From the NCBI GenBank assembly GCA_964572035.1, contig CAZNDX010000001.1, forward strand, positions 60,437-124,436: a DNA stretch of 64,000 nucleotides. Reading direction: 5' to 3'. This stretch comes from an uncultured Methanosarcinales archaeon. GTDB lineage: Archaea > Nanobdellota > Nanobdellia > Woesearchaeales > ARS49. Of the stretch, positions 14,401 to 40,043 are shown in pieces (within the stretch, counting starts at the first letter, position 1; each line of letters begins with the position of its first letter). Under the pieces are notes generated by a model, which saw nothing but the letters and a program-made list of their open reading frames with translations, did not search any database and had not been told where the DNA came from. A program made the position numbers and the translations under genes.

Positions 14401-16655
14401 ACAGCATAATTGAACTTAAAGACGATGAAGAAAACACGCCAAAAACAGTATCATTCACAGGATATCAAATAAACCCTGAAGGCCTTGACTTCACGAACGC
14501 GACACTTCTCCTGAACGCGAGCGGAAACCACTCATTATGGAAATGCGCGAACTACAACTTCACGGAAGAAAAATGCTTTGAAGGAAACTGGATAGAACAC
14601 CGAAACATAACAAAAGGCCAACTTTACACCGTAAATATAAACGCAACGGACCCCGCTTTTATCGAAACAACGGCGGCAGGAGACGTCGCAATGGACCCAC
14701 TAAACAACACAATATTCCTAATAGGATTTGTTGACATAGCTCAAACAGAGGTCTCATTTGAAATACTAAACACGAACGGAACAATAATCATTAATACAAC
14801 AGACGTGGACACAACAGTAACAACAAACGCAAGAGTTGACGTCAACTGGATAAACAGCAGCCACTTCGTAATATTCTGGGCAGACACAAACGATAACGAC
14901 GCGACATTCCAAATATTTAGCTTCAACGGAACAGCAACAACAAGCGTCGCAGGACCAATAGATGTCGACACATCAATGGGAAGCGCAAATGTTGACGTAT
15001 CACTCGCAATGCTAGACAACAGATTCGTAACGTGCTACGCGAACGACGCAGACTCTGACGCGGACTTTCAAGCATACAATTTCGCCGGAACACAAGTGGT
15101 TGTTGAAACCGCAGTGGATGGAAATATACAACCAAGCTCGCCGCTTCAAAATCTAATAGACTGCTCGGCAACAAACAACACCAGATGGACATATTTCACA
15201 TTTGATGACTCGACAGTCAACGACGCGACATACTACATTCTCGACAACACAGGAGGAACAATAGTGGGCGCGACAGACATAGACACAGACGTAGGAGAAA
15301 CAGGACAAGTAGCAGTAATTGGACTTAACAACAACCTTTCAGGGCTGGTATGGTATGACAGCACGGACCAAGACATATCAATCGCAGGAGTCAACAATTC
15401 AGGAACAACCACCTTCGGACCAACAGACGTCGACACAGGAGCCGGAACAGAAAGCAGAGTAGCAGGAGCAGCAGTCCGACAAAACAAAACATCAACCGAC
15501 CAACTATTCGCGTTCGCCTGGTGGTCACAAAGTAACGGAACGGTAAAGGCGTCAATTTACAGAACAAACGGAACGCAGTTCACGGCGCCGTTCAACGTAA
15601 GCGCATCGATAAACTCAACATTCCCAATAATAGACATAACCGGAAGGGACAACATAACAGGACAAGAAATATGCCCCGGCGCATTTTTAGTCGCTTTCAG
15701 TAACGGATCAACCGGCCAATTTGTCGGATACTGGGTGAACGGAACACCATGGAATGGAACATGCCCTATTGATTTAATAGCAACTCAACTAAACGCGAGC
15801 GACTTAAACCCTGATGAACTGGAAAACGTAACATTCAACGGAAGCATTTTCAACAACGGAACAAGCACCGCGTTTAATTTTATCTCAGCTATCGTGGATG
15901 GAAACTGCACTACTGGAACAATGATACAAAACAGAACAGTCAATCTCTCGGCGGGACAAAACACAACCCTAAACTTCAGCTGGAGCGCGACACCAGTGGG
16001 ACCGCACAACATAAGCTTTTGCGTCAACTACATAAACAATGTTCTGGAGGACAATTACACCAACAACAACATAACAATAACAATAAACGTCAAAGCGTAC
16101 AACGATTACTTCGGCAATATAACAGGAAATCTGACTCTTGACACAAACACAAACAACACTGAATACGACTGGAGATTCAATGACTCAGGAAACATCATCT
16201 TCACAAACTCACAAGTAACTGTGAACTTCACCGCGCTATACGCACTAGGAAGAAACACAACAGGCGGAATAGCGGTTAACGATTTTCTTGAAGCCGACCA
16301 AGCGCTGAACATGACAGGATTCAACGACAGCATACAAACACTATGGTCGACAAACGCAAGCCAGCCAAGACAAACAACAAACTTCACGGTGCGCGGAAGA
16401 ACAATAGAAAATGTGCCGTACATCAACAGCACAAACACAAGCAACTTCATAACAGGCATTTTGTGGCAATCTGTAAACAGCACAAGCAGAGAATTCAACG
16501 CGACGCAAAAGCAACCATTGCTGTTTGTAACAATGATAAACCGCAACCAAACAGGATTCTACGGAAGATATGATTATGAGGCGCACGTACCTGTGCTTCT
16601 GCGCTCCTATAATAGTACGTCCAACGCTTTGCAATATTTTGTTGAACTGAAATAA
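11472..16655 (+). CDS. giant secreted surface glycoprotein candidate (1727 aa) with a large internal duplication
   Basis: TTG start preceded by AGGAGG. Sec signal MRILPILLILALATATAG. There are more than 150 N-x-S/T sequons and acidic DxDxD motifs. Two modules of about 400 aa are roughly 75% identical. Confidence 0.8.
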   Translation: MRILPILLILALATATAGVDISEILGKKLEVKNEENKNEKLISDTLSKFTERLKDKNEISLIDKTGKAQIKQTSRNWTINATIENHPIRKIQLNNVRGKNNTLKIDTPIIKDSRQSYAIDPTEINFTNGEIEVIAKGEHLFKCPGWNYTTAICEETCKLNNDQEEVCLEWFYQKEITPGQPYTIEIAPNDPAFYETSASSDVSASPYNSTTILIAFTDVTQTDVGFKIMDTNGTEIVNTTLVDTTVDTRSRVDSAWINSTHFVIFWADTLENDGTFQIWNFNGTHATSATTPIDADTSMGGINVDVSIAMLNDRFVTCYANDGDSDADFRAFDFLGTQVVGETAVDGNILPSAPLQNQIDCSATSNNRWTYFTYDDATVNDATYYIQSETGASIVGAVDIDTDVGEEGQVTVIGLNENLSGLVWYDSTDQDITIAGVNNSGTTIFGPTDADTEAGTSSRVAATGLRQDKTSTDQLFAFAWYDSADTTIKAAVYRTNGTQFTAPFNVTTTPNSTYQIIDITGRDSITGQEICPGTFIVAFSNSTGRGEFLGFWANSTPWNGTCVENEPPSIKNATVVPSIVNIGNNVCFILNVTDADGITNVTAIIDPPLGANQTLTLNEGLSCNSIPGDNLWTNIYFPIIDATHIWGTVNITDGLGVTTTHAINVSFDVLLPSISIEGIYPPTFAAYNDGTNFNVSLINVSDNVYTTQTIPANVNTRTFFNWTQFNLTDKQIKNAVIIVEHSYSNSTNLNISLDQFNGSEWISRCTLSASQTDTTHFCNITVFVNSTTLNNLQLRLNASATSNRTQNVDYIVLNLTTNTPPTINHDINQTYLLNQTALLRLNVTDLENDTIIRVNATVTSPSGATLFYNFTNTNGTLWDATHADMKLKGIYNITIRATDNQGSTRVIQTFFTRRAFNVVDIIEPKEEGVPTLQNFSFHNYTAQIISNQSNILALSINLTGAEVKQINITGYNESSPYSIIELKDDEENTPKTVSFTGYQINPEGLDFTNATLLLNASGNHSLWKCANYNFTEEKCFEGNWIEHRNITKGQLYTVNINATDPAFIETTAAGDVAMDPLNNTIFLIGFVDIAQTEVSFEILNTNGTIIINTTDVDTTVTTNARVDVNWINSSHFVIFWADTNDNDATFQIFSFNGTATTSVAGPIDVDTSMGSANVDVSLAMLDNRFVTCYANDADSDADFQAYNFAGTQVVVETAVDGNIQPSSPLQNLIDCSATNNTRWTYFTFDDSTVNDATYYILDNTGGTIVGATDIDTDVGETGQVAVIGLNNNLSGLVWYDSTDQDISIAGVNNSGTTTFGPTDVDTGAGTESRVAGAAVRQNKTSTDQLFAFAWWSQSNGTVKASIYRTNGTQFTAPFNVSASINSTFPIIDITGRDNITGQEICPGAFLVAFSNGSTGQFVGYWVNGTPWNGTCPIDLIATQLNASDLNPDELENVTFNGSIFNNGTSTAFNFISAIVDGNCTTGTMIQNRTVNLSAGQNTTLNFSWSATPVGPHNISFCVNYINNVLEDNYTNNNITITINVKAYNDYFGNITGNLTLDTNTNNTEYDWRFNDSGNIIFTNSQVTVNFTALYALGRNTTGGIAVNDFLEADQALNMTGFNDSIQTLWSTNASQPRQTTNFTVRGRTIENVPYINSTNTSNFITGILWQSVNSTSREFNATQKQPLLFVTMINRNQTGFYGRYDYEAHVPVLLRSYNSTSNALQYFVELK
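11893..13157 (+). repeat. intragenic direct repeat, copy 1 (about 1.26 kb)
   Basis: Protein FKCPGWNYT...TPWNGTC. It shares identical nucleotide runs of at least 20 nt (e.g. cacttcgtaatattctgggc) with copy 2. Confidence 0.7.
14538..15764 (+). repeat. intragenic direct repeat, copy 2 (about 1.23 kb)
   Basis: Protein WKCANYNFT...TPWNGTC. About 75% aa identity to copy 1, offset about 2.6 kb. Confidence 0.7.
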
Positions 16656-16716
16656 AGCGAAATTTTGACTGATTTGGGATGTTTTTTTCGCTGTTTAATT
16701 ATTTTCAATATAAAAG

Positions 16717-16746
16717 ATATTTATCGATGCATGTATCGATAAATAT
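16717..16746. promoter_or_regulatory. inverted repeat ATATTTATCGAT-gcatgt-ATCGATAAATAT (12-bp arms) upstream of the winged-helix regulator gene
   Basis: Perfect arms read from the sequence. It shares a TGCATG core with the second palindrome. Confidence 0.5.
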
Positions 16747-16769
16747 TTAAACAAAACGGCAATAGAAGA

Positions 16770-16783
16770 CCTTGCATGCAAGG
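16770..16783. promoter_or_regulatory. 14-bp perfect palindrome CCTTGCATGCAAGG centred on the regulator start codon
   Basis: Read from the sequence. The ATG of ORF 16776 is the palindrome centre. Confidence 0.5.
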
Positions 16784-17246
16784 GGATCGCGTTCGAGAGA
16801 TAGTACTGAGTATAATCTCTAATTCTCAAACCCCGCTCGAAACCCCAGAAATCCTCGAACGCGTTCTTCAACAAACCAAGACGACAAGAACAATCGTCTT
16901 CAAACGCCTCACAGATTTGCGAGGCGACGGCGAGATATTCGGAGCGCACATCGGTTCCGGAAAAGGAACGTGGATTTGGTGGAACAAAGAACTGCACAAA
17001 GACGAGCAGAAAGCACCAACTTCCGACGACAAAATCGCCTCAAAAGTTCTCGAGACAATCTTCACTTCTCAAACTCCTCTAGAAACTAAGCAAATTGAGA
17101 AAATCGTGCAGGACGCGATCCCAACAACCCGCACGATAATTTTCAAACGCTTGACAGACTTGCGCGGCGACGGCAAAGTCAGAGGAAAACACGTCGGTTC
17201 CGGAAAGGGCGCCTGGATATGGTGGAGGGAAAATGCGACTAGATAA
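16776..17246 (+). CDS. tandem winged-helix DNA-binding protein (two ~70-aa repeats)
   Basis: Repeats SQTPLET.EI...TTRTI(V/I)FKRLTDLRGDG...G.H(I/V)GSGKG(T/A)WIWW occur twice. It lies just upstream of the paralogous secreted-protein genes and overlaps the first by 14 nt. Confidence 0.6.
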   Translation: MQGDRVREIVLSIISNSQTPLETPEILERVLQQTKTTRTIVFKRLTDLRGDGEIFGAHIGSGKGTWIWWNKELHKDEQKAPTSDDKIASKVLETIFTSQTPLETKQIEKIVQDAIPTTRTIIFKRLTDLRGDGKVRGKHVGSGKGAWIWWRENATR

Positions 17247-17916
17247 AAGTCTAGGCAAAGCGCTGATCGCAATCGCAATGGCCCTCATTATGGTAGCTGC
17301 AGCCTTCGCCCAGCCAGTAGGAGCGGGCGTGCAAACCGGAACACCAGTAACCAAGTCATTCATCAGCTCCGGAACAATAGGAGCGCAGGGAGGAAACGCG
17401 ACAACACTCAGCGCAACAACAGAAACGCAAACATTGTCCTGGCAGGGCTTCTACGGAGAAGTATCGGCCAATATGAGCCTGGAGAATTCAAACGGCAGCG
17501 TACTATACAGCTGGACCAACGCGACAAACGGAACAATATATCTCAGCAGAAAGGCAGCTGTCAACTTCGCCAACATAACAGCAGTAAACGTATGTACCGT
17601 CGATGAAAGCATCACAGGAACTGGCAGCGCAAGAGTAAACAACACATTCAGGTCAAGCAACAACACCGAGCTAATAGTTGGAGGAACAGTGATTCCACCT
17701 GGAACAGCGTGCGCGATGAACTCATACGTCAATAACGCAAGCCAGAGTAGCGCGTTCGAAGAAATCATCCTGACAGATGACGGAGTAACAACCATATACG
17801 CGACGCAGATAGAGGAGAACGCTCCAGGATTCGACGGACAGCCACACGACTGGCAGGCGCTAGTGCCATCCAACCTAACAACACTAACGTACTACGTATA
17901 CGTCGAATTCGAATAA
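17233..17916 (+). CDS. Sec-secreted protein, paralog family member A
   Basis: Signal peptide ending AFA-QP. Conserved AQGGNxT...WQGFYG core shared with 18010 and 20358. Sequon-rich. Confidence 0.65.
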   Translation: MRLDKSLGKALIAIAMALIMVAAAFAQPVGAGVQTGTPVTKSFISSGTIGAQGGNATTLSATTETQTLSWQGFYGEVSANMSLENSNGSVLYSWTNATNGTIYLSRKAAVNFANITAVNVCTVDESITGTGSARVNNTFRSSNNTELIVGGTVIPPGTACAMNSYVNNASQSSAFEEIILTDDGVTTIYATQIEENAPGFDGQPHDWQALVPSNLTTLTYYVYVEFE

Positions 17917-18009
17917 GCAAAACGAAATATTTAAATATCAGTATAGTCATATAAAAGGTCACCAGTATACGAAAACATATACTATAGTTGAGGGAAAAGA
18001 GGGATTTCA

Positions 18010-18690
18010 ATGAGAATAAAGACGCTAATTATCGGCATATTGATTTTAGCAGCAATGACAGTAATGGCTTACGCGCAACCACTCGGAGCGAGCACGCAAG
18101 TAGGAACCCCCCAAACAATCACGTCCGGGACTCCTGGCAACGCCACCGCGCAAGGTGGGAACATAACACTAGTCAACCTGACAGGGAGAGGAAGAGTAAA
18201 CGCCTGGCAAGGTTTCTACGGACAAGTAAGCGGAAACTTCTCACTTGAGGATACTACAGGGGACGTCCTTTACGCTTGGGATATCACAAACCACACAGGC
18301 GAAGTGTTCGCAAGCAGATTCTCAACAATCGATTTCACAACAGTCGCAGGAGTAACAACTTGCACAGTAGATGAAGATTTAACAGGGAACGGAAGAGAAC
18401 GAACAAACAGAACGTTCACAAACGCAACTGTAAACTTCACAATAGGAACCGTGAGCATAACTGAGGCGTGCAGAACATACACATACGTAAGCAACGCGAC
18501 TTCCACAAACTGGGAAGAAATAATCATCAACGCAACAGGCGTAACCAGCATTTACGTCGTCAAAATTAACGAATCCACACCAGTGTTTGACGGAACATCC
18601 CAGGACTACCAAATGATTGTGCCTGATAACAGAACGGCCGCGACAACAGTTTACTACTTTTACGCGGAATTTGACTCGACGAGCGAGTAA
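18010..18690 (+). CDS. Sec-secreted protein, paralog family member B
   Basis: Signal peptide ending AYA-QP. AQGGNITLVNLTG...AWQGFYGQVSG aligns with members A and C. Confidence 0.65.
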   Translation: MRIKTLIIGILILAAMTVMAYAQPLGASTQVGTPQTITSGTPGNATAQGGNITLVNLTGRGRVNAWQGFYGQVSGNFSLEDTTGDVLYAWDITNHTGEVFASRFSTIDFTTVAGVTTCTVDEDLTGNGRERTNRTFTNATVNFTIGTVSITEACRTYTYVSNATSTNWEEIIINATGVTSIYVVKINESTPVFDGTSQDYQMIVPDNRTAATTVYYFYAEFDSTSE

Positions 18691-18729
18691 ACAGATACCT
18701 TTTTAATATTCTTTTTTATTTGAATTTTT

Positions 18730-20394
18730 ATGAAAAAGGGATTTTTGCTAATATTTCTCATATTCGCGACAGCGGTCAGCGCTCAAGAAGTATACGTCGC
18801 CAACACAGCATCCTGGGAAAACATTTACAGCGCAGGAATATACAGCGCGCTATTAGGAAAAGAATTCTACTACCTCGTAAACGCGAGACATGCGGAAGCA
18901 TTGACAGCAGAACTGCCAAGAGGAGCAGACGTAACAGTAATCGAATCTGACAGAATCCCCTACGTAAAAAAATACGCAAACCGCTTAACAAACGCCGGAA
19001 TGAAATCACAAACAGTACTAGTTCCCGAGGATGACGCAAATCTTGACCTCGCAAAAAGACTCCCTCAAATAAACAGCTATTATCTAGTAAACCCAGTATT
19101 CGGATATGACGCGATAAGCGCCGCACCCCTCGCGATACAAACAAAATCATATGTGCTATTCGCCACAAAGGAAAACGCCAAAGAACTAGCCGAATTCCTC
19201 AGCAGCAAAACATTGTCAGGACTGACCATAGTTGGAGACGCAGACCAAGAAGTCATCAGCGCAGTCTCCCATCTAAACCCAAAAATAACCAACGAAGGAA
19301 ACAGATTCAAAAACAACATAGCCCTCGCCGAACAATACAGACAAGCAACAAACGCGCAACAAGCAATACTAACAAACGGAGAATTCCTAGAATACGACAT
19401 ATTCACAGCACAAAACCAGCCAATAGTATTCATAGGAAGAGACAGAGTCCCAGAACAATCACTCGAATACCTAAGGTCAGCACCATACAAAACATTCGTA
19501 GTCCTAGGGAAAGACCTCCTAGGAAGCAGCCAGTCAATAAAAACCTCAACACAAAAACCAGTATTCCTCAAATTCGCCAAAGGAACAACAGGACCAAACG
19601 GATTCCAAAACGTAAGAGGACTCGACCTATTCCCAACACCAGTATTCGAAATGCTCCTCTCATTCAAAACAATATACTACAACATCGACCAGCAGAAAGT
19701 AGAAATGGCAGTTCAAAACGAAAAGCCAGCAAGAACATACCTAGAAGCAAACATACTCCTCCAAGAAGGAGACACTCCAATCATAACACTAGGAGGAGAC
19801 GGATTCAGAATAGAAGGAAATACACAGCACACGTTCAGCTACGCCCAAGACTTAAGCGCCTACGCAACAAAAAACGTAACAGCGCAAGTAACAATACCAT
19901 ACGGCGAAAGCGAAGACACAATAGAAAGAGTTCTAACAGCAACACAACAACTAATATTCTTCTCAGAAAAAGACCTATGCAAACTAAGCATAAACGACGC
20001 AGAATACGACGACACAACACAGCGCTTCAAAATAACAGTCAAGTCGGACAAAGAATGCTACGCGCAAGCGACAATGCTAAACCTGACCATTAGCGATGAA
20101 ATCACCAACCCACAAAGCGGAACGGTAAGAATCGATGGAAAAACAACCATTGACGTCAAACAAAGAATGGACGAAGTTGACATCGCCGACAACCCAACAA
20201 TCACTGTAAGCGTCCGCTACGGAAGCGAGCCAAACGCGCTCATCAAAGAAATAACAAAAACAATGCCATTCAAGAGGACAAGCAGCATTAGCATGACGCT
20301 AATAATCGGAATCGCCGCAATAGCCGCAGTCGTATTACTAATAATTTTCATAATACTATGGAAACGAAAAAAACAACGGCGCTACTCGTACTGA
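18730..20394 (+). CDS. cell-envelope protein with putative cell-wall-binding (CW_binding_2-like) repeats and a C-terminal TM anchor plus basic tail
   Basis: Signal peptide. Segments such as DAISAAPLAIQTKSYVLFATKENAKEL resemble CW_binding_2 repeats. C-terminus LIIGIAAIAAVVLLIIFIILWKRKKQRR. Confidence 0.55.
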   Translation: MKKGFLLIFLIFATAVSAQEVYVANTASWENIYSAGIYSALLGKEFYYLVNARHAEALTAELPRGADVTVIESDRIPYVKKYANRLTNAGMKSQTVLVPEDDANLDLAKRLPQINSYYLVNPVFGYDAISAAPLAIQTKSYVLFATKENAKELAEFLSSKTLSGLTIVGDADQEVISAVSHLNPKITNEGNRFKNNIALAEQYRQATNAQQAILTNGEFLEYDIFTAQNQPIVFIGRDRVPEQSLEYLRSAPYKTFVVLGKDLLGSSQSIKTSTQKPVFLKFAKGTTGPNGFQNVRGLDLFPTPVFEMLLSFKTIYYNIDQQKVEMAVQNEKPARTYLEANILLQEGDTPIITLGGDGFRIEGNTQHTFSYAQDLSAYATKNVTAQVTIPYGESEDTIERVLTATQQLIFFSEKDLCKLSINDAEYDDTTQRFKITVKSDKECYAQATMLNLTISDEITNPQSGTVRIDGKTTIDVKQRMDEVDIADNPTITVSVRYGSEPNALIKEITKTMPFKRTSSISMTLIIGIAAIAAVVLLIIFIILWKRKKQRRYSY

Positions 20395-21887
20395 TATTTC
20401 TCGCAGGAATAGCGTTCGCGCAAGTTCCAGGGAGCGCTCCCGCTCAAGGAGGCAACATAACAATGGTGAACCTGAGCGTTTTCAATGAAACTCAGCGCTG
20501 GCAAGGATGGGTAGGAACAGTATTTTTCACAGGACCACTCACGCCACCAAGCGTTCCAGCAATAGGCGGAGAAATAAACTTCACACAAATAAACGTAACA
20601 AGCCCCTGCACCAGCCCAACAGCAGTAAGCGGATTCATACTGTTCAGCAACTCAAGCACAGCGCCAACAGGACTTGTCGCCGGAAATTTAACAATCCTTG
20701 ACCAATTCACAGGAGGAGGACCTGACAAGGGAAGCAGCACATTCACAGTCAACACAACATTCACAATCGGCGCGCCAATCACAAACGTACCAACAGCATA
20801 CCCGTACGTCAACAACGGAAGCCAAAGCACAGTATTCAGAGAAGGCTACCTGAACGACGCAGGAGGAAACATAGTTTTCGCGGTAGAAGTAAACCTGAAC
20901 ACCCAAGGATACAACAGCAGCTTCTTTGACTTCCAAGCGCTTCTCCCAGCAAGAAACAAAACAGCCGCAACTTGGTATTTGACAACAGACCTGCAAATAA
21001 CATGCCCGCCAGTCACCCCTCCATCTGGCGGAGGAGGCGGAAGACCATACTACCCACTATGCACTCCGTCGTGGAACTGCACAGGATGGGGGCCATGCCA
21101 AGACGGACTAATGCTAAGAAACTGCACATCTAACTTCTGCGGAAGAGCAATAGCAAGACCGCCAACAGCAAAAACCTGCGAAGCGATAATTTCACCTGAA
21201 ATGCAAGAACCGGAACTCATCGACAAACTGCACGGGACACAAATACTCGTTCAAGCGCCACAAGAGATAGAAATAGTCGCTGGGCAACTCACTCAAGTAT
21301 TAATCACCATACACAACCCAAATGACTACAGCATAGAAGACCTCAGCGCGACAATATCAACACCGTTCGTCACGCAAACATACACGCCACTCCAAACAAA
21401 ACCAAAGCTCTACCAACTTTTCGGAGTAATACCCAAAATAAAAAACATAGAAGAACACGCGATACGCTCAAGAACAACACCTACCCTAATGCTTCCAAAA
21501 GAAACCATAACACTCCCAGCATACCTTATAGGCCCTCCAATCATTCCGCAAAGAATATCAGCAACCCTCACGATAAAAAGCGGAGACATAACAATATTCA
21601 CACAACCAATAATTATAATAACAGAAGTCAACTCGCTAACACTAATGACTAACAAACAAGGAAGCACTATAACAGCATACATCATTCTAGATAACAGAGA
21701 ACAAAAAAGACAAAAAAAGTCTCTCGAACTGGATTTAAACCAAGGACGCACAACAAAACACGCAGACCTATTTGACATCACAATTGAACAAAACAAAGTC
21801 GCGACATACGCGCAAACATACAGAACAACATTCGATTACGACGCCGTTCGAGCGAGAACAGACAACGCAGTAATAGAGGTACGCTAA
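20358..21887 (+). CDS. Sec-secreted protein, paralog family member C with a Cys-rich linker and long C-terminal domain
   Basis: Signal ending AFA-QV. AQGGNITMVNLS...WQGWVG core. Linker PPSGGGGGRPYYPLCTPSWNCTGWGPCQDG...C..NFC. Overlaps the previous gene by 37 nt. Confidence 0.65.
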   Translation: METKKTTALLVLIFLAGIAFAQVPGSAPAQGGNITMVNLSVFNETQRWQGWVGTVFFTGPLTPPSVPAIGGEINFTQINVTSPCTSPTAVSGFILFSNSSTAPTGLVAGNLTILDQFTGGGPDKGSSTFTVNTTFTIGAPITNVPTAYPYVNNGSQSTVFREGYLNDAGGNIVFAVEVNLNTQGYNSSFFDFQALLPARNKTAATWYLTTDLQITCPPVTPPSGGGGGRPYYPLCTPSWNCTGWGPCQDGLMLRNCTSNFCGRAIARPPTAKTCEAIISPEMQEPELIDKLHGTQILVQAPQEIEIVAGQLTQVLITIHNPNDYSIEDLSATISTPFVTQTYTPLQTKPKLYQLFGVIPKIKNIEEHAIRSRTTPTLMLPKETITLPAYLIGPPIIPQRISATLTIKSGDITIFTQPIIIITEVNSLTLMTNKQGSTITAYIILDNREQKRQKKSLELDLNQGRTTKHADLFDITIEQNKVATYAQTYRTTFDYDAVRARTDNAVIEVR

Positions 21888-29810: not shown

Positions 29811-31340
29811 TTATTGCTTAAAAAAGTCCAAAAAGTCCTTTGTGACATAAGATATATCGACGCTGGAATAACCAATATCCTTGGCGAGTTCATCAAGAGT
29901 TTTACCAGTAGCGCCCCACTGCCACAAAGATTTCAAGAATTGACCCGCATCCTTTGACTTATACCATTCTTTTCCAAATTTCTCTTCAAGTCTTTTTCTA
30001 AGCATCGCCTCAAAAAGCCACGCGCGAACATAATCAGCGGCGTACAAACCCGAGTCAACATCTCTCAAGTAATTGTCTTTGCGATACTTAATCTTTGTCG
30101 CTTTAGTAAGAATATCCTTATACATCTCCGCGGCTGACTCATACTCGCCAGATTCAGGCTCAAACTTATCATTAAGTCTCTTCAAATCATTCCGGTGGAG
30201 CTTCAGCTCGTAAAGAACTTTAGAAGCGTAACGCCTGAAAAAGTAAAGTTTTTGCTGCATAATGAAATTCGCAAAACGCTTCGCGGCATCATCAGGCATT
30301 CCAACAAACTCTTTCAGCCAGTCAGGATTTGCGAGAAGGTATTCGCAAAGGAAAGCATAAGATTCTGAAACTGCATGGCCACCCATATGCTTTAGCTCAT
30401 AGGGAAGGTCTGGATTCACGTTAGCGAAATGCTCAGTGTGGCCGGACTCGTGCAAGAAAGCCTGGAAATCGTCCTGCCCGCCATGCGGCTTGATAACAAG
30501 AACAACTTCTTCTGGAACACGAATAGGCATACAAAAAGCTCTCGGAACTTTCTTTTCACGCTCCTCAATGTCAAGCTTGACGTTAGACTGTTTTGTAATC
30601 TCAAAACCAAGACCGCGCCAGAATTTTTCAGCGGTTGGAACAAGACGCTCTTTCTTAAAATAATCGTCAAACATTTTCGCCCGCGCGAGATAAGCAAAAT
30701 CCCAAGGATTCGCGTCAGAAAGCTTAACCTTGATGTGAGCAAACTGCTCAGCCATCTGCTTGGTGAACAATTCATCAGTATCAACCAAAAACTTTCTCAG
30801 CTGCTTCGCAAGAGAATCATAATCAGTTTCCTTTTCCAACGCGCAAAAATCAACATACTCAAGACCAGTAAGGTCCTTAATCATCCTATAATCCTTTTTC
30901 CAAAGCTTCTTGTCATAACTTGTGAGTTTCTTCTTTACCTTGTCCATTGACAAATAAAACTGCTTACGCTTCTTTCTATCATCCTCATTCATCAACAATG
31001 TAGGCACTTGGCGATAAGCGATATTTTTTCCACCTATACTGACTTCAGCCTTGGCCTCAAAAGCGTCAGCCTCATCGCTAATCTTTTTGACCTTATTGCC
31101 TACAAAAGCGCCAACCATAAAAGCGTACAAAAGACGAGCCTTGCGCTTTTCCTGAGTCCCATTCGCTAACTCGAATAACTTCTTAGCCTCAACAACATTC
31201 TTTTTAGAAAACAACTGAGGATATTTATCAAAAATAGCCGCCGAATTAATATCATCCTTCAAACCAGCGCTGTGAGCATACTCCTCGCGCATCAATTCCT
31301 CCTCAAACTTCGCAATATCAGATACAAGATGTGAGACCAT
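29811..31340 (-). CDS. zinc metallopeptidase, M3/M32-like (oligoendopeptidase F / carboxypeptidase Taq-like)
   Basis: 509 aa, largely helical, with HESGHTEHF (HExxH) at the position expected for these families. Confidence 0.55.
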   Translation of the reverse strand: MVSHLVSDIAKFEEELMREEYAHSAGLKDDINSAAIFDKYPQLFSKKNVVEAKKLFELANGTQEKRKARLLYAFMVGAFVGNKVKKISDEADAFEAKAEVSIGGKNIAYRQVPTLLMNEDDRKKRKQFYLSMDKVKKKLTSYDKKLWKKDYRMIKDLTGLEYVDFCALEKETDYDSLAKQLRKFLVDTDELFTKQMAEQFAHIKVKLSDANPWDFAYLARAKMFDDYFKKERLVPTAEKFWRGLGFEITKQSNVKLDIEEREKKVPRAFCMPIRVPEEVVLVIKPHGGQDDFQAFLHESGHTEHFANVNPDLPYELKHMGGHAVSESYAFLCEYLLANPDWLKEFVGMPDDAAKRFANFIMQQKLYFFRRYASKVLYELKLHRNDLKRLNDKFEPESGEYESAAEMYKDILTKATKIKYRKDNYLRDVDSGLYAADYVRAWLFEAMLRKRLEEKFGKEWYKSKDAGQFLKSLWQWGATGKTLDELAKDIGYSSVDISYVTKDFLDFFKQ

Positions 31341-32170: not shown

Positions 32171-34426
32171 TTAGCCGAAATAAATCGGCAACTCCTGCTT
32201 CATTTCCTTCGCGCGGGCGGAACGGAACCTCTCGCGCAAGTCCTCATACATCTTCTCAACATCCTTTGTAACAGATGGAGGGACTTTCTTCAAAGCTTCC
32301 TCAAAATCTTTCATCGTAACTTCTTTCGCACTCATATTAGCGCGCAAAGCAAGAATCGCAGCTTCCCTGCAAACAGCCTCGATGTCAGCGCCAACGTAAC
32401 CGTCAGTCTTGTGCGCCAAATCATCCAAATCAACATCCTGAAGAGGCATACTCTTGGAATGGACCTTGAACGCCTCCAAACGACCCTGGAAATCAGGAAC
32501 AGGACACAAAATAATCCTGTCAAAACGCCCCGGACGCAAAAGGGCAGTGTCCATAATATCCGGACGGTTAGTCGCGCCAATAACAACAATATCGTGCATG
32601 CCTTCCAAACCATCAATCTCGGTCAAAAGCTGGTTAACAACACGCTCGGTAACATTTGAGTCGCTACTCATCCCTCTTCTTGGGGCAATGCTGTCAACCT
32701 CATCAAAGAAAATAATTGTTGGGGATGTCTGGCGGGCCTTCTTGAAAACTTCCCTAACCGCTTTTTCAGACTCGCCAACCCACTTGCTGAGCAACTCAGG
32801 ACCTTTAACGCTAATGAAGTTCGCCTCGCTCTCGTTCGCGACAGCCTTGGCAAGCAAAGTTTTACCGGTGCCAGGAGGACCATACAACAAAATACCCTTC
32901 GGAGGCTTAACACCCAAACGACGGAAAGCGTCAGGACGCTTCAAGGGCCACTCAACAGCCTCCTTCAACTCCTGCTTGACAATTTCCAAACCACCAATAT
33001 CAGCCCACTTAACAGTCGGAACCTCAACAAGCACCTCTCTCAATGCAGAAGGTCGTACAACTTTCAAGGCTTCCTTGAAATCCTTCTTCCTAATCATCAA
33101 CTTCTCAAGCAACTCCTTTGGAAGAGGCTCATCCTTATCCTTATTCGCCTTGAGCTCAGGCAAAATCCTTCTCAAAACAATCATCGCGGCTTCCTTCGCC
33201 AACGCGGCAATATCCGCGCCAACAAAACCGTGAGTCACAGCGGCAATTTCTTTCAAATTGACATCCTTGTCAAGCGGCATATGACGAGTGTGAATTTTAA
33301 GCACGTTAAGGCGGCCTTCCTTATTTGGAACACCGATTTCCAACTCCCTATCGAAACGGCCCGGACGGCGAAGGGCAGGATCCAAAATGTTTGGCACGTT
33401 AGTCGCGGCAATAACAACAACCTTGCCACGGCTTTTTAGACCGTCCATCAAAGTCAACAATTGGGCGACAACACGACGCTCAACCTCGCCACGGGTTTCC
33501 TCACGCTTGGAAGCAATGGCGTCAACCTCATCAATAAAAATAATACTTGGAGCGTTCTTCTCCGCTTCCTCAAACTTCTTTCTGAGATTTTCTTCCGACT
33601 GACCGTAATATTTGGACATAATCTCAGGACCATTGATAAGGATGAAATGAGCATTAGTTTCGTTCGCGACAGCTTTCGCAAGAAGAGTTTTACCAGTGCC
33701 CGGAGGACCGTGGAGGAGAACACCTTTAGGCGCGTCAACACCCAAACGCTCAAAAACTTCCGGATGCTTAAGCGGAATCTCAATCATCTCACGAACCTTG
33801 GTAATCTCATCCTCCAAACCACCAATATCCTCGTAAGTAACCTCAGGAACTTCCTCGTCGCTAACTTCAATAGCTTCAGGATTCAGAACAACCTCGGTCT
33901 GCTCGGTAATTATGACGGCGCTCTTCGGATTTGTTTCGGCAACGACAAACTTCAAATCACCAAAACCAACCGCCATCATCTGCTCTTCCATCATATTGAA
34001 AACTTCATCAAAACTTCTGCGACGCCTTGGACCACCCAAAGAAATGATATCACCCTTAACCATTGCGCGACCCATCAAGCCCTGCTTGAAAATAACAGGA
34101 GACGCGCGAACAACAATTCCCTCTCTAGCCGGAGCAATAACAACTTTTTTCGCAGGCTGAACCTTCGCCTTTGTAACAGCAATAAGCTCGCCAATAGAAG
34201 TCTTGCAATTCTTTCTGGTCAGACCGTCCATTCTGACAATATTCAAACCAATATCGCCGGGATAAGCGCGGTCAACAATAGCAACGGTTTTTCTCTGGCC
34301 CTCAATCTCAACAATATCCCCAGGTCTGACATCTATCTCACGCATAAAACTGCTATCCATTCTAACAATACCCTTATGGACGTCGTCCTGAATAGCTTCC
34401 GCGACCTTTAACTTAACATCCGCCAT
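32171..34426 (-). CDS. cdc48: CDC48/VCP-like AAA+ ATPase (N domain plus D1 and D2)
   Basis: Two Walker A GPPGTGKT motifs, two DExD Walker B motifs, an SRH, and a CDC48 N-terminal double-psi barrel sequence. Confidence 0.9.
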
Positions 34427-34481
34427 AAACCACTCTCTAATAGATACTACATTATTTAAAAAACTTATGAAAGCCCAACAA

Positions 34482-34889
34482 CTACTTCATATTGACTTTT
34501 GGAAGAGGAATTGGAGGAGGCAAGTTAACCTCGCGTGAAAGAACCATAGCTTCCACGTTGGACCTCGCAAGAATGGTGTTAAGAACACTAGTCATAACTT
34601 CTTTTGGAACATTCTTGTCCTTTTTCCAAGACTTCACAATATCCGCCGATTTCTCAGGCGTCTCAAAGAAAGTAAGCGTGCCATTCAAAATCATAGTCGC
34701 GATTTTTGGCTCATAATTCGCGGTAAACTCAAAACGGAACTTAAGCGCGCTTTGCTTGCTCGCGCCAATCGCGACATCCGCTTTCTCAACATCCTGAATC
34801 GCGACATTATTGTTAACAGTAACTTTACCCTTTACAGGAGAATGCTTCTCCACAACAATCTTATCAAACTGCAATCCAACAACTGGCAT
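34482..34889 (-). CDS. hypothetical protein
   Basis: 135-aa ORF with correct strand composition. Confidence 0.35.
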
Positions 34890-34958
34890 ACCCTTGGAAA
34901 ACCCACAACCCTTTTAAATAGTTATCGCTTCTCGAATAAATAATAAAAGAGGCAATAA

Positions 34959-35921
34959 ATGGCGTTTTTCGAGATATTTACACACCCAATCGTGTTCAGC
35001 TTGTTCATACTAATCGCCAGCCTTTACATCCTTCTCAAAAGCGCAGACTACATAGTTCTAAGCATAGGAAGCTACGCGAAAAGACTGGGACTATCGGACG
35101 CAATAATTGGAATTGTCGTAATCGCCATGGCCGCATCAGCGCCGGAAATCATCAGCTCACTCACTGGATTTTTATCAAGCGGGGAGTCAGTAGGGTTCGG
35201 AAGCATCCTTGGAGCAAATATGGTACACGTCGGCTTCGCCCTAGGAATACTCTGCCTAGTTGGACGAAAAGTCAAACTTGAACCAAACATCTTCACCAAA
35301 AGACGACTACTAATGTGGGCGTTCCTAATGCTGCCGTTTATTCTGGCTCTCGATGGACAACTGTCGAGACCAGACGGAGCGATACTCGTCATCGCGTTCT
35401 GCACATACTTCGGAATATTATGGAAACTAGAAGGAACACTTGGAAAAATCAAGAAAAACGTCCACCTAAAACACATCTGGAAAGACGCACTCGTATTTCT
35501 TCTCGCATTTGTAGCCTTGATGCTATCAGGAAGATGGCTAGTATTCTCATCAGTCACAATCGCGAACGAACTAAACGTTCCAGCATACTTCGTCGCGTTA
35601 ACAATCATCGGAATCGGAACAACAATACCAGACATCGCAATAGAACTAAAATCAGTTTTTTCCAAAAGGGAAGGAATTGGACTTGGAGACTTACTCGGGT
35701 CGCTAGTCATTGAACTCTTGTTGTTTTTTGGAATATTGGCGCTAGTAAAACCAATAGACGTGAACTTAGGACTTGTGCTAAACGCGTTCATATTCCTTGT
35801 ATTGCTAATCAGCGCGATGATATTCTTCCTCAACAAAAAAGAACTCACTTGGAAACATGGCGCGTTCTTCATGGGCGGATACTTGCTGTTCCTTCTCATA
35901 GAAATTTACAAAATCATATAA
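34959..35921 (+). CDS. Ca2+/Na+ antiporter (CaCA family, YrbG-like)
   Basis: Two alpha-repeat signatures (GIVVIAMAASAPEIISS and TIIGIGTTIPDIAIEL) and about 10 TM segments. Confidence 0.8.
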   Translation: MAFFEIFTHPIVFSLFILIASLYILLKSADYIVLSIGSYAKRLGLSDAIIGIVVIAMAASAPEIISSLTGFLSSGESVGFGSILGANMVHVGFALGILCLVGRKVKLEPNIFTKRRLLMWAFLMLPFILALDGQLSRPDGAILVIAFCTYFGILWKLEGTLGKIKKNVHLKHIWKDALVFLLAFVALMLSGRWLVFSSVTIANELNVPAYFVALTIIGIGTTIPDIAIELKSVFSKREGIGLGDLLGSLVIELLLFFGILALVKPIDVNLGLVLNAFIFLVLLISAMIFFLNKKELTWKHGAFFMGGYLLFLLIEIYKII

Positions 35922-35944
35922 ACCACAACAAATGAAACAACAAT

Positions 35945-36739
35945 ATGATACTGTTTGACGACCATTGCCACTTAACGCACGAATTATACAAACAAGACTT
36001 AGACGCCGTGCTTGAGAGAGCGCGCAAGGCAGGAGTTAAAGCAATAATTTGCGCAGGAGTAAACGTCCCAACGAACAGAGAAGTCTTGGCGCTCGCGAAA
36101 AAATACGCACCATTAGTTCGATGCAGTCTTGGAATATATCCAACAGACGCAATAGGACTCGGAAGCGACGAAACAGGACTCAGCAGACAGACGGTTCCAT
36201 TCAACGTTGACGACGAACTGGAATTCATACGCTCACAAAAAGACCACATCGCAGCAGTCGGAGAAGCGGGATTAGACTACCACTGGACCAAAAAACCAGA
36301 ACACATCAAGGCGCAAAAAGAAAACTTCGCCAAGGTGATTAAGTTGTGCGAGGAGATTGGAAAACCACTAGTAGTTCACACGCGCGACGCGGAAGCGGAC
36401 TGCATAGAAATGCTCGCGAGCAGCAGTCTGAAGAAAGTCGTTCTGCACTGCTTCACCGGACGCAAAAACATCGTTAAAAGAGCGGCAGAATTAGGATACT
36501 ACTTTTCAATACCCGCAGTCATTGAAAAACTGCAACACTTCAAAATGGTCGCTGAAATGGTAAACATCAACCAATTATTGTCTGAAACAGACGGACCATG
36601 GCTGTCTCCAGTTCCAGGAAAACCAAACGAGCCGGCGAACGTCATTTATACAGTTCGCAATATAGCAAAAGTCAAAGGATTCACGGAAGAAGAAACCGCG
36701 AACAATTTGTGGCTTAACTATCAAAGGGTGTTTGGCTAA
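35945..36739 (+). CDS. tatD: TatD-family metal-dependent nuclease
   Basis: LFDDHCHL start. Motifs GEAGLDYH, VVHTRDA and the C-terminal ETDGP are typical of TatD. Confidence 0.85.
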   Translation: MILFDDHCHLTHELYKQDLDAVLERARKAGVKAIICAGVNVPTNREVLALAKKYAPLVRCSLGIYPTDAIGLGSDETGLSRQTVPFNVDDELEFIRSQKDHIAAVGEAGLDYHWTKKPEHIKAQKENFAKVIKLCEEIGKPLVVHTRDAEADCIEMLASSSLKKVVLHCFTGRKNIVKRAAELGYYFSIPAVIEKLQHFKMVAEMVNINQLLSETDGPWLSPVPGKPNEPANVIYTVRNIAKVKGFTEEETANNLWLNYQRVFG

Positions 36740-37260
36740 AGAGACAAAATATTTTCAAGCGACTCGACTTTTTTCAACAGCGCATTCTTTTTTTCGCCGT
36801 CCAAAACAAGAATCTTATCTTTCGCATCAGAGACTGCCTTTCTAACCAAATCGTACTCATGAGCAAACAAATACATATTCGCCTGACTAAGATACGCAGC
36901 CGCACTCTCCTCTGGCTTGGTAGTCGACGCCCACAGTCCAAAATGCGCAGCAATATCCAGCGCAACACGCTCCTCCCACCACTCTCCCTTGTCAAAATCC
37001 CTCTCCAAAAGAATAAGGCCAATATAACGATTCGCCTCACAAGCAGCATCTATTGAGCGATAAGATGAAGACAAAAAGTTCTCCTGCAAAGAAGCGTTAA
37101 AAAAATGCAAAGCCAAATTATAATCCCTGCTATTATACGCCCTCTTCGCGGAATCCAAAAAAGAGGCATACAACGGAATATCAGCAGCGCGGGGTTTGGG
37201 CTTTCCAAAAAACAAATTTCTCAAAAAAACATACGCCTTGTCAAAAAAAGATTCATTCAT
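36736..37260 (-). CDS. hypothetical helical (TPR-like) protein
   Basis: 174-aa ORF overlapping the tatD stop by 4 nt. Confidence 0.35.
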   Translation of the reverse strand: MNESFFDKAYVFLRNLFFGKPKPRAADIPLYASFLDSAKRAYNSRDYNLALHFFNASLQENFLSSSYRSIDAACEANRYIGLILLERDFDKGEWWEERVALDIAAHFGLWASTTKPEESAAAYLSQANMYLFAHEYDLVRKAVSDAKDKILVLDGEKKNALLKKVESLENILSL

Positions 37261-37294: not shown

Positions 37295-37990
37295 TTACTG
37301 ATAACCCCATTCATACTTGAAAACTTCCCTTTTAATAGGACCTTTCAACAAAGTAATCGCGACTCCGTACAAACTCTTTGACAAAAATTTAACTCTGCCC
37401 TCTTTTTCCAGACGGCGAACAGAGACAAAAACCGGGGAGGGAAGAACATCAAAACGAGCGCCATAAGAACAAACACGAGAAACAAACTCAGCATCCTCCG
37501 CCCAAACAACACTCTCATCAAAACCCTTTGAAGCGTTAAACAAACCCTTTCTAACAAAAATATGAAAGCCGCAACACGCAGGCTTCACATTCTTAATAAC
37601 TTTGTAACCGGCGTTCCAAGCAGCGTGAATAACCCTATCATCAAAACGAGAACTTAACGGACGAAGCGTGGTTGTGGCTATATCAAGGTCGCGTTTCTTG
37701 AATAAGGAAACATTCTTTTCCAGAAAATCACTCGGCAAAATAACATCAGAATCCAAAAACAAAAGCAAATCACCCTTCGCCACTTTGGCACCTCTGTTTC
37801 TGCCAACACCAGGAAGACCACCATCAACAACCTTCGCCCCAAACTTTTTCGCAATTAAACGAGTTTTGTCAGAACTATTCGCGTCAGCGACTATGACCTC
37901 AAAATCCTGAAAAGACTGGCGCCTCAAACTGCGAAGAAGATTAGGAAGAAACTTCTCCTCATTCTTCGCAGGAATAATAACTGAAAGCAT
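37295..37990 (-). CDS. family-2 glycosyltransferase (Dpm1/GtrB-like, soluble form)
   Basis: LSVIIPAKNEE...VIVADANSSDKT...LFLDSDV (DxD) GT-A motifs. 231 aa. Confidence 0.8.
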   Translation of the reverse strand: MLSVIIPAKNEEKFLPNLLRSLRRQSFQDFEVIVADANSSDKTRLIAKKFGAKVVDGGLPGVGRNRGAKVAKGDLLLFLDSDVILPSDFLEKNVSLFKKRDLDIATTTLRPLSSRFDDRVIHAAWNAGYKVIKNVKPACCGFHIFVRKGLFNASKGFDESVVWAEDAEFVSRVCSYGARFDVLPSPVFVSVRRLEKEGRVKFLSKSLYGVAITLLKGPIKREVFKYEWGYQ

Positions 37991-38559
37991 CAGAAAAGTT
38001 TTCCTCCCTGATAATTTGACTCCTTTTGGGACTCGTAATGCGCGTGACCCTTAAGCTCAACAAAAGAAAACTGAGCAAACCTAGCGCCAAGCTCAATCTC
38101 TCCATCCATAAAAGGCAACAGCATAAAAGCGTGATAACCCTTATAGCCCGCTTCAGTAAAACCACAACCAAGAATGCTTTGAGTCAGCCTAAACAAAGAA
38201 GTTCGAAGCGCGGCGTGAATCATTAAATCAGAAGGAGTATTAACCTCCTCACAAGTCAAAACAAAATAAGGCTTTAACTTCTCAAGCTTGACTGAACCAG
38301 AAGTCATAACAAATTTCTCCTTAACATCATAACCGTCAAGGCGATTCTCAAAACCTTTTAGCACAAAAGCGCGCCCGAGCTTAGGAGCACGATTATCCAA
38401 TTTGCTAACAGCGAGCTTACCCCCGTCAACAATCTCCACAACACACGCAAGACGAACATCAAAACCATTAGCAGTAAGCTGAGCGTCAATATCGGCATAA
38501 TTAGTAATCAGATTTTTTTCCAAAATCAACTGTTTCAACACATCCCTTGAAAGATTCAT
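37990..38559 (-). CDS. dcd: dCTP deaminase / dUTPase-superfamily protein
   Basis: FDVRLA, and GFTEAGYKGYHAFMLLPFMDGEIELGARFAQ resembling the Dcd/Dut beta-clip motifs. Confidence 0.65.
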   Translation of the reverse strand: MNLSRDVLKQLILEKNLITNYADIDAQLTANGFDVRLACVVEIVDGGKLAVSKLDNRAPKLGRAFVLKGFENRLDGYDVKEKFVMTSGSVKLEKLKPYFVLTCEEVNTPSDLMIHAALRTSLFRLTQSILGCGFTEAGYKGYHAFMLLPFMDGEIELGARFAQFSFVELKGHAHYESQKESNYQGGKLF

Positions 38560-38590
38560 AACAAAAAAACAGCCGAATTGCTATATAAAA

Positions 38591-39115
38591 TTACCCCAAA
38601 ACGCCGTATAAGAAAACCCTCGGAGCCTTTGAGTGATGATTGACCCTTTTAACAAAGTGACGCAGACCTTTGGCGTTGACAAGCGTCAGAGTATTCTTTT
38701 CAGCGATTACTCTGGCGACTTCCCCAGAATCACCAATAAAAGAAGAGTAACCACCCCACTCCTGCTCTCTAGGAACAATGTCAACCATAACAACAAAACC
38801 GGATTCAGGCTTCAAACTATCATAAAGCAAAGTGTAATCCTTGTGCTTGAACTTTCTCCACTCAAGTTGTTTGAATTTCAGCCGTTTTCCAGCGATTTTT
38901 GACAAGAAAGCCTCCAATTCTGATTTCCACACCGGACCTTTCGCAAAAGAGTATGAAAATTTCAACGGCTCATATTTTTGTTTCCATTTCAAACCCAAAA
39001 CATCAGCCAACGCGGAAGGCATCAAAACATCATTCAAAGAAACGACGCCCTTCTTTCTAAAAGAAGAAGAAATTTCATCAATCATTTCATCAAAACCTGA
39101 GTTAATTCTAGCCAT
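38591..39115 (-). CDS. DSBH-like protein resembling the non-catalytic C-terminal domain of Tpa1/OGFOD1-type hydroxylases
   Basis: Start taken at MARINSGFDEM (ATG 39113-39115), 8 nt before the stop of the upstream oxygenase gene and in a different frame. Beta-rich with no HxD...H triad. Confidence 0.35.
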   Translation of the reverse strand: MARINSGFDEMIDEISSSFRKKGVVSLNDVLMPSALADVLGLKWKQKYEPLKFSYSFAKGPVWKSELEAFLSKIAGKRLKFKQLEWRKFKHKDYTLLYDSLKPESGFVVMVDIVPREQEWGGYSSFIGDSGEVARVIAEKNTLTLVNAKGLRHFVKRVNHHSKAPRVFLYGVLG

Positions 39116-39701
39116 GGAACCACCCTGCGAAGCTAACACGCTTTTGACCAATGACTTCTTCCACTTCGTGAAGGGATTTATTTGAAACTTCAAAAATAGT
39201 TAACGTATTGAATCTTGGCACTATTCTTTTCACGACATTCTTACCCTTGAACAAAGCAAGCGCGCCGCCATTTTCATCCTTAAAATTCTCAGAAAGATTA
39301 ACGACGTAAGCTATTTTTCTGCCCTCCAAACGATCATCATGGGGCAACAAATAATCAGTATCGCCATAAATAAAACCAGACATATCTATCGATGTTAATT
39401 TTTTACCAGTTATCTCAGAAATGAATGACAGGAATTCACGCGAGCCGAAAAATTTGTGAAAATCCTGCACAACTTTGGTTTTAGCTTTACTGCAATCGTT
39501 TGTTTGATGAAACTGAAACAAATCACTATTCTGATAATGAAACTTCTCCTTGAGCAAGGCAGACTTCAATTCCTTCGCGTTTTTGAAAAAATTAGGCAAA
39601 ACAAGATGAGGAAAAGGTTTTGCTGACTTGAAATCTTTTTTTAACTCGGAAAGCTTGCCAACATAGGAATCAGACAACCAATTCATACAATCAAAATACA
39701 C
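39108..39701 (-). CDS. 2-oxoglutarate/Fe(II)-dependent oxygenase, Tpa1/OGFOD1-like catalytic domain
   Basis: N-terminal FPHLVLPNFF, HxD in LLPHDDRLEG, a distal His in SLHEVEEV, and RVSFAGWFHG (Arg-x-Ser 2OG-binding context). Confidence 0.6.
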   Translation of the reverse strand: MYFDCMNWLSDSYVGKLSELKKDFKSAKPFPHLVLPNFFKNAKELKSALLKEKFHYQNSDLFQFHQTNDCSKAKTKVVQDFHKFFGSREFLSFISEITGKKLTSIDMSGFIYGDTDYLLPHDDRLEGRKIAYVVNLSENFKDENGGALALFKGKNVVKRIVPRFNTLTIFEVSNKSLHEVEEVIGQKRVSFAGWFHG

Positions 39702-39765
39702 AACAAACCTTTTAAACCCTTTCGAAAAGAAAATGACTAAAACTCTGAAGAACGAACCTATGATC

Positions 39766-39816: not shown

Positions 39817-39888
39817 GAACCTATGATCTAGTGGTTAGGATGCCTCCTTCACAGGGAGGATGCCCCAGTTCGAATCTGGGTAGGTTCA
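39817..39888 (+). tRNA. tRNA-Val (anticodon CAC)
   Basis: Acceptor GAACCUA/UAGGUUC, D-stem AUCU/GGAU, anticodon stem CCUCC/GGAGG with loop UUCACAG, and T-arm CCCAG-UUCGAAU-CUGGG. Confidence 0.8.
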
Positions 39889-39946
39889 TTAAGCGAAACA
39901 GATTCGAAAGTCTAGCCACTTCGTGGCTATCCCCCGAACAAGTTCG

Positions 39947-39970
39947 GGGTTCGAATCTGGGTAGGTTCAT
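39947..39970 (+). repeat. 23-nt copy of the tRNA-Val 3' end (ggttcgaatctgggtaggttcat) 57 nt downstream of the intact gene
   Basis: Exact match to the 3' T-arm/acceptor of tRNA-Val. It is preceded by two perfect hairpins (tagccac-ttc-gtggcta and cccgaac-aa-gttcggg) but lacks a cloverleaf. Confidence 0.6.
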
Positions 39971-39972
39971 AA

Positions 39973-40043
39973 GGGGTTGTGGTCCAGTGGTAAGATACAA
40001 GGTTCGGGACCTTGTGACCGGAGTTCGATCCTCCGCAACCCCA
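39973..40043 (+). tRNA. tRNA-Pro (anticodon CGG)
   Basis: Acceptor GGGGUUG/CAACCCC, 3-bp D-stem with loop CAGUGGUAA, anticodon stem CAAGG/CCUUG with loop UUCGGGA, and T-arm CGGAG-UUCGAUC-CUCCG. Confidence 0.8.

Follow-up and report, generated by a model that had tools for sequence, protein, structure and literature searches.

The closest described relatives of the system reported here hydroxylate a proline of the ribosomal protein uS12. Human OGFOD1 (PDB 4NHX and 4NHY) is the 3-hydroxylase of Pro62 in uS12 (RPS23), whereas yeast Tpa1 (3KT7) and Schizosaccharomyces pombe Ofd1 (C-terminal domain, 6E0T) are uS12 prolyl 3,4-dihydroxylases; Nro1/Ett1 and Sre1 are partners of the yeast proteins (PMC4396695). 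The OGFOD1 subfamily has been described as "found only in eukaryotes," prokaryotic prolyl hydroxylases being single-domain proteins, and the eukaryotic enzymes' C-terminal domain (CTD) was proposed to have originated by gene duplication (PMC4396695). PPHD of Pseudomonas (4IW3 and 4J25) is such a single-domain bacterial enzyme, a prolyl 4-hydroxylase that acts on EF-Tu. A 2015 review describes protein modification by 2-oxoglutarate (2OG) oxygenases as a common feature of eukaryotes and of many prokaryotes "but not archaea" (PMC4543633). In this study, we analyzed a stretch of 64,000 nucleotides (nt) from the genome of an uncultured archaeon (contig CAZNDX010000001.1), hereafter the window, and in it four closely packed genes on the minus strand (39701-37295), numbered here 1 to 4 from upstream to downstream. 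Genes 1 and 2 probably encode, as separate polypeptides, the two halves of an OGFOD1/Tpa1-type enzyme.

Two adjacent genes correspond to the two halves of OGFOD1

The window has a GC content of about 43%, and its genes include those for Cdc48, GatD/GatE, TruD, RtcB, SMC and thymidylate kinase. The nearest named homologs are found in Woesearchaeota and Nanoarchaeia metagenome-assembled genomes, and the source of the window is therefore almost certainly a DPANN archaeon. Five closely packed minus-strand genes lie between a tRNA-Val/tRNA-Pro pair and a convergent TatD gene, and the first four of these are the genes considered here. A preliminary description, made from the DNA letters and their open reading frames (ORFs), had taken the first two, which overlap by 8 nt in different frames, for a 2OG-Fe(II) oxygenase with an HxD...H motif and a degenerate partner, together a split version of the two-domain Tpa1/OGFOD1 enzyme. 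The close packing and the overlap can be read directly in the sequence, and the analyses below bear out both assignments: for each half, the best match among solved structures is the corresponding half of OGFOD1. The features of this pair are as follows; DSBH denotes the double-stranded beta-helix fold.

39108..39686, minus strand: gene 1, 2OG/Fe(II) oxygenase equivalent to the N-terminal domain (NTD) of OGFOD1/Tpa1, 192 amino acids (aa) from ATG 39686
38591..39115, minus strand: gene 2, degenerate DSBH protein, counterpart of the OGFOD1/Ofd1/Tpa1 CTD by profiles and predicted fold, 174 aa from ATG
39108..39115, minus strand: stop/start overlap of 8 nt, ATGGCTAG; gene 2 is in the +1 frame and its start codon lies within the His-Gly-stop codons of gene 1
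39710..39716, minus strand: TATA-like box TTTAAAA at -30 relative to ATG 39686, a putative promoter from which a leaderless mRNA of the NTD and CTD genes would start

The maximal ORF of gene 1 runs from GTG 39701 to 39108 (197 aa), but ATG 39686 is the likely start because the homologs begin at M-x-W. The protein matches the Pfam family PF13661 (2OG-FeII_Oxy_4) with an E-value of 3.5e-24. Its predicted metal ligands H121, D123 and H178 and its predicted 2OG ligand R188 (numbered in the 197-aa ORF) align with H155, D157, H218 and R230 of OGFOD1, and the HxD...H and Arg ligands are invariant in 15-48 homologs. The best PDB sequence match is human OGFOD1, residues 79-259 (E = 2e-28, 103 bits), followed by Tpa1 (E = 1e-8, 38 bits); other hydroxylases reach no more than 21 bits, with E-values of at least 0.004. 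Identity to OGFOD1 is 38.7% over 181 aa, which at least equals the 33% published for the human and yeast NTDs (PMC4396695), and it ranges from 33 to 44% across all DPANN orthologs. The gene 1 protein terminates at GWFHG, the crystallographic boundary between NTD and linker in OGFOD1. Its AlphaFold2 model (pLDDT 96.6, pTM 0.92) has OGFOD1 as the first Foldseek match (TMq 0.90, 4NHY) and Tpa1 as the next (0.86). JBP and TET proteins, with which the oxygenase was also to be compared, were absent from its PDB sequence matches and from the top 50 Foldseek matches of the models of both genes. By sequence and by fold, gene 1 is thus placed with OGFOD1 and not with small-molecule hydroxylases.

When gene 2 and its close relatives were built into a profile, the sole PDB match was OGFOD1, residues 456-543 (E = 8e-6). 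The motifs DYTLLxD and FVKYVNH of gene 2 correspond to HYTLIHD and FVKHINH of OGFOD1, and the DPANN orthologs are 27-40% identical to the core of the OGFOD1 CTD. Alignment of the gene 2 family to the NTD family with hhalign places DYTLLYDS over DYLLPHDD, with Tyr98 and Ser100 at the positions of the His and Asp ligands. Because it lacks these two ligands, the domain is predicted to be non-catalytic, as in OGFOD1 and Tpa1. The gene 2 model is also a confident DSBH fold (pLDDT 96.4, pTM 0.90); its top Foldseek matches are OGFOD1 (TMq 0.85), the Ofd1 CTD 6e0t (0.79) and Tpa1 (0.73). The E-values of these three surpass those of the next DSBH enzymes by a factor of about 1e5.

The two-gene arrangement is conserved

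At the junction, gene 1 ends with TGG TTC CAT GGC TAG, and the ATG of gene 2 lies inside cATGg. The embedded start codon indicates translational coupling, and termination-reinitiation would be its simplest reading. Transcription units were read by an archaeal TATA-position analysis over 56 crude genes of the window. Across the whole window, TATA-like hexamers form a sharp peak at -35 to -26 upstream of ATG, and 25 of the 56 genes carry one; the position of this peak suggests that transcripts in the window are mostly leaderless. A scan for bacterial-type promoters and terminators found no more sites than in shuffled sequence.

We scanned one genome per GTDB species and obtained 80 loci. About 60 belong to DPANN archaea, one (L064) to Poseidoniia, that is, marine group II archaea, and about 20 (L070-L089) to Myxococcota. 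The two-gene arrangement extends beyond DPANN. Four of the 80 loci were cut by contig ends, which left 76 that could be evaluated. Each of these 76 has a CTD-like ORF downstream of the NTD gene and in the same orientation, and the two genes are adjacent or overlapping in 75; the sole separated pair (L031:5588-6357) has its genes 768 nt apart. No fused prokaryotic NTD-CTD gene was seen among the 76. In the clustering of gene neighborhoods, the NTD-CTD linkage was the only one kept across all archaeal loci. The split is not an error: it is ancient and universal among the evaluable loci.

The length of the overlap (8, 11, 4 or 1 nt) and the relative frame vary by lineage, the second gene being in the +1 frame in most DPANN and in the +2 frame in Myxococcota and some DPANN. 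An 8-nt overlap is found in 36 loci (40 if in-frame ATGs are counted), the ATG being formed from the CAT/TAT-GGN codons of a conserved WF[HY]G C-terminus; an 11-nt overlap occurs in 14 loci, and a 4-nt overlap (ATGA/GTGA) in 13 + 7 loci, mostly of Myxococcota. The homologs of either half are short. All 120 gene 1 homologs among the matches listed are 150-210 aa long. A HMMER scan with the gene 2 profile gave 389 cluster representatives; of the 150 among the matches listed, 149 do not exceed 249 aa, and most fall between 150 and 210 aa. A single long protein (P0173, 1004 aa) is present among the best 150 of the 389. According to Pfam, it contains four Ofd1_CTDD stretches and a PF13661 fragment; it appears to be a fused protein, possibly eukaryotic.

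Proposed function and substrate

The interpretation that we favor, and regard as probable, is that genes 1 and 2 encode a two-subunit, split OGFOD1/Tpa1-type Fe(II)/2OG protein hydroxylase, co-transcribed and translationally coupled, which most likely acts on uS12, and that genes 3 and 4 are separate from it. The pair would be transcribed as a leaderless bicistronic mRNA, and translation of gene 2 would be coupled to that of gene 1 through the start codon within the final codons of the latter. The two polypeptides would be produced in a 1:1 ratio and may then associate like the two domains of OGFOD1, which pack together by their minor beta-sheets. The resulting heterodimer would be an Fe(II)-, 2OG- and O2-dependent protein hydroxylase, with a full catalytic site in the first subunit and a second subunit that lacks the metal ligands. 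By homology, its substrate is most likely the conserved proline in the KQPNSA loop of uS12, at the decoding center. In DPANN uS12, the target loop of OGFOD1 is kept exactly, as EAKQPNSA (EAKQPNSAMRK in the uS12 genes of the four loci named next; an example peptide is LEKRQIEAKQPNSAMRKACVV). A uS12 gene is located at most 5 kb from the pair, on the opposite strand, in four loci of one DPANN subclade (L041, L044, L066 and L068). The identity of the loop and these nearby uS12 genes are suggestive, but weak, pointers to a uS12 target.

Several points weigh against this interpretation. The gene 2 protein scores 26.1 bits (E = 7e-6) against PF10637 (Ofd1_CTDD), slightly below the 27-bit cutoff; its orthologs pass at 44-75 bits. 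TM-scores alone do not tell an NTD-like from a CTD-like DSBH (the model of gene 1 gives a TMq of 0.79 with the Ofd1 CTD), so the assignment of gene 2 leans mainly on sequence profiles and motifs. DPANN archaea live mostly in low-oxygen environments and are generally regarded as anaerobes, which is awkward for an O2-dependent enzyme. Hydroxylase activity, heterodimer and substrate are all predictions from homology. Finally, other prokaryotic prolyl hydroxylases have other targets, e.g., EF-Tu for PPHD (PMC4543633).

The last two points also favor the main alternative, in which the pair is a genuine split enzyme of the OGFOD1 family with a different substrate. This could be a further ribosomal protein, an elongation or initiation factor or some other translation-associated protein, or it may not be a protein at all. 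PPHD is among the weaker sequence and fold matches of the pair, the nucleoside-antibiotic oxygenases PolD and PasI come next after OGFOD1 and Tpa1 in the fold ranking (TMq 0.72-0.78), and the second subunit of Myxococcota is too diverged to match Ofd1_CTDD. We nevertheless consider a target other than uS12 rather unlikely: OGFOD1 (103 bits, 39% identity) stands far above the other characterized oxygenases (at most 21 bits; PolD and PasI 17-20% identity), a non-catalytic CTD is so far specific to uS12 hydroxylases, and DPANN uS12 has an identical target loop.

Genes downstream of the pair

Gene 3 begins 31 nt after gene 2, and genes 3 and 4 share 1 nt (TGATG). Both are probably unrelated neighbors of the oxygenase pair.

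37990..38559, minus strand: gene 3, divergent protein of the dUTPase/DCD superfamily (PF22769), 189 aa
38582-38590, minus strand: TATA-like box of gene 3, TTTTATATA, at the standard -30 position
37295..37990, minus strand: gene 4, small family-2 glycosyltransferase (GT2; PF00535), 231 aa

The preliminary description had called gene 3 dCTP deaminase-like. This is correct at the level of the superfamily, as the protein passes the model PF22769 (DCD-like) with 35.9 bits against a cutoff of 27, but not at the level of equivalogs, where it falls below the cutoffs for both dCTP deaminase (TIGR02274, 42.1 versus 92.8 bits) and dUTPase (NF002598, 41.1 versus 130 bits). The best PDB match of the family profile is a "probable dUTPase" (9w59, E = 3e-13). 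Like archaeal dUTPases and dCTP deaminases (PF22769; 9w59, 8y1w, 2yzj and 1ogh), the family belongs to this superfamily and keeps the motif RSSLxR (RSSLFR in gene 3) and the C-terminal motif YQGG. It differs from them in its sub-cutoff equivalog scores, in being a narrow subfamily, and in having EAGYxG in place of D(A/P)G(Y/W)xG. The motif is EAGYKG in gene 3; EAGYxG is invariant in 37 family members, and solved dUTPase/DCD-like proteins have DAGYRG and DPGWDG at the aligned positions. A catalytic Glu after D(A/P)G(Y/W)xG is specific to the deaminases, and no Glu was seen in the FMLL segment that follows EAGYKG in gene 3. The subfamily comprises 95 clusters, all of about 189 aa and with named members all of Woesearchaeota type, and is about 35 residues longer at the N-terminus than the matched archaeal enzymes of 155 aa. 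Gene 3 reads as a predicted, divergent archaeal dUTPase-like enzyme, and the activity of its subfamily may depart from that of canonical dUTPases. As for gene 4, its description as a small GT2 agrees with a score of 90.7 bits against PF00535 (cutoff 23.3) and with LDSD, a DxD motif, in its sequence. The best NCBIfam model, TIGR04283, stays below its cutoff (105 versus 182 bits), and no specific equivalog was passed.

TATA-like boxes occur at -30/-31 from the ATG of gene 1, of gene 3 and of the next gene (36736-37260), and none precedes genes 2 and 4. Since the boxes stand before genes 1 and 3 only, these four genes would form two bicistronic units, and the stretch is best read as NTD-CTD, dUTPase-like-GT2 and a separate 174-aa gene. 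The word operon, which had been used for genes 1 to 4, fits their close packing on one strand but not a single four-gene unit, given the second TATA-like box.

The same description had speculated that the combination of oxygenase, nucleotide enzyme and glycosyltransferase hints at a hydroxylation/glycosylation pathway. In such a pathway of all four genes, a protein or nucleotide would be hydroxylated and then glycosylated, and the DCD-like enzyme would supply or process a nucleotide. Such a pathway would have a precedent in the prolyl hydroxylation and subsequent glycosylation of Skp1 in Dictyostelium (PMC4543633), the genes are tightly packed on one strand in the window, and the order NTD-CTD-DCD recurs in about 17 related loci. 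However, a DCD-like gene downstream of the pair is confined to loci whose NTD is at least 54% identical to that of the window, and more than 40 loci carry the pair with neither a DCD-like gene nor a GT2 gene nearby, more distant pairs having other neighbors. Among all loci, GT2 adjoins the pair only in L003 and L006/L007. Conversely, L090, L091 and L092 carry more distant members of the DCD-like subfamily but not the oxygenase pair, and the DCD-like gene of the window has its own TATA-like box at -30. The phyletic pattern has already largely refuted the four-gene pathway, which we regard as very unlikely, and together with the promoter position it led us to reject a functional link of the pair to the two downstream genes.

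A block of genes for CDC48, a 135-aa protein without a Pfam match, a Na-Ca exchanger and TatD (window 32171-36739) is syntenic in many Woesearchaeota-type genomes (L003, L004, L008, L090 and L092). At the TatD end of this block there are variable insertions of the oxygenase pair, of the dUTPase-like gene and of the GT2 gene, and in L090 and L092 the DCD-like gene stands beside this block without the pair. Genes 3 and 4 are probably a separate transcription unit of housekeeping neighbors in this conserved block.

Other features of the window were observed on both sides of the locus. The tRNA-Val (39817-39888) and tRNA-Pro (39973-40043) genes are separated by a spacer of 84 nt (39889-39972, plus strand). 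Toward the end of the spacer, 21 nt (39949-39969, GTTCGAATCTGGGTAGGTTCA) are an exact copy of the tRNA-Val 3' terminus (39868-39888); a hairpin, CCCCGAACAAGTTCGGGG, precedes them. ARAGORN, with introns allowed, detected no third tRNA in this spacer, and there was no matching 5' acceptor strand; the repeat may be a remnant of integration into a tRNA 3' end or a tRNA fragment. Elsewhere, region 8162-21887 encodes a 927-aa subtilase, followed by a 1727-aa protein whose sole match is a CARDB domain and by ORFs of 554 and 509 aa without a Pfam match, and another 509-aa ORF without a Pfam match is located at 29811-31340. The proteins of these two regions are possibly cell-surface proteins.

Origin and significance of the pair

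The least credible explanation of the split, with a probability close to negligible, is a sequencing or assembly frameshift, a recent pseudogenization of a fused gene or a fusion protein made by programmed frameshifting: a one-nucleotide deletion at the junction would indeed join the frames, but two ORFs are present in every evaluable locus, in assemblies from many studies and in three phylum-level groups, which together with the short homologs of both halves led us to reject error and pseudogene, and programmed frameshifting was rejected because overlap length and frame differ by lineage and the downstream ORF invariably begins at a start codon of its own, with no common slippery site.

Full-text literature searches found no paper on an archaeal or DPANN OGFOD1-like enzyme or prolyl hydroxylase. 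The catalytic half is already represented in databases, where automated pipelines label NTD proteins as "Rps23 Pro-64 3,4-dihydroxylase Tpa1-like." Neither the conserved two-gene architecture nor a CTD that exists as a protein of its own appears to have been described so far. The presence of the pair in DPANN, Poseidoniia and Myxococcota bears on the statements that the subfamily is confined to eukaryotes and that such modifications are not found in archaea.

With regard to evolution, we built a crude neighbor-joining tree from 110 columns, with only two partial eukaryotic sequences. In this tree, the enzymes of human and yeast form the sister group of the DPANN clade, apart from Myxococcota and Poseidoniia, but its weakness does not allow a choice between fusion on the one hand and fission or transfer on the other. 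We tentatively propose that DPANN, at least one marine Poseidoniia and Myxococcota may hydroxylate uS12 with a heterodimeric, two-gene OGFOD1, and that the eukaryotic enzyme may have arisen by fusion through a one-nucleotide change at the stop/start junction. If the prokaryotic pair acts on uS12 and was later fused, ribosomal prolyl hydroxylation predates eukaryotes. The two-gene form is a plausible ancestor of the eukaryotic enzyme, or else a derivative of it by fission. In this natural system, the enigmatic non-catalytic domain is also a polypeptide of its own, so that a role in substrate binding or stability becomes testable. A further question is why DPANN, with their reduced genomes, retain an O2-dependent enzyme. 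For a new hydroxylation/glycosylation pathway, the window gives no evidence.

Comparison with known systems

Like PPHD, the pair is of the prokaryotic 2OG prolyl hydroxylase type, is predicted to act on the translation machinery and has a similar DSBH core (TMq about 0.75). It differs from PPHD, which has no second DSBH subunit, and the two are only 16-17% identical (E = 0.004).

With Tpa1 and Ofd1, the pair shares the architecture of two DSBH domains and their fold, at TMq values of 0.85-0.87 (NTD) and 0.73-0.79 (CTD). Its sequence similarity to Tpa1 is much lower than that to OGFOD1 (38 versus 103 bits), and, unlike Tpa1, it lacks the dimerization inserts and the long linker. We know of no obvious archaeal counterparts of Nro1/Ett1 or Sre1.

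OGFOD1 is the best match for both halves. Unlike OGFOD1, whose domains form a single linker-joined chain, the pair consists of two polypeptides; it has neither the 31-residue proline-rich linker nor the acidic loop of about 60 residues in the CTD (174 versus about 270 aa), and its hosts are archaeal or bacterial. Gene 1 is 39% identical to the catalytic domain of OGFOD1, shares its HxD...H...R site and has an identical GWFHG boundary at the C-terminus, and gene 2 has, like the OGFOD1 CTD, a DSBH without metal ligands and with the corresponding motifs, DYTLLxD and FVKYVNH.

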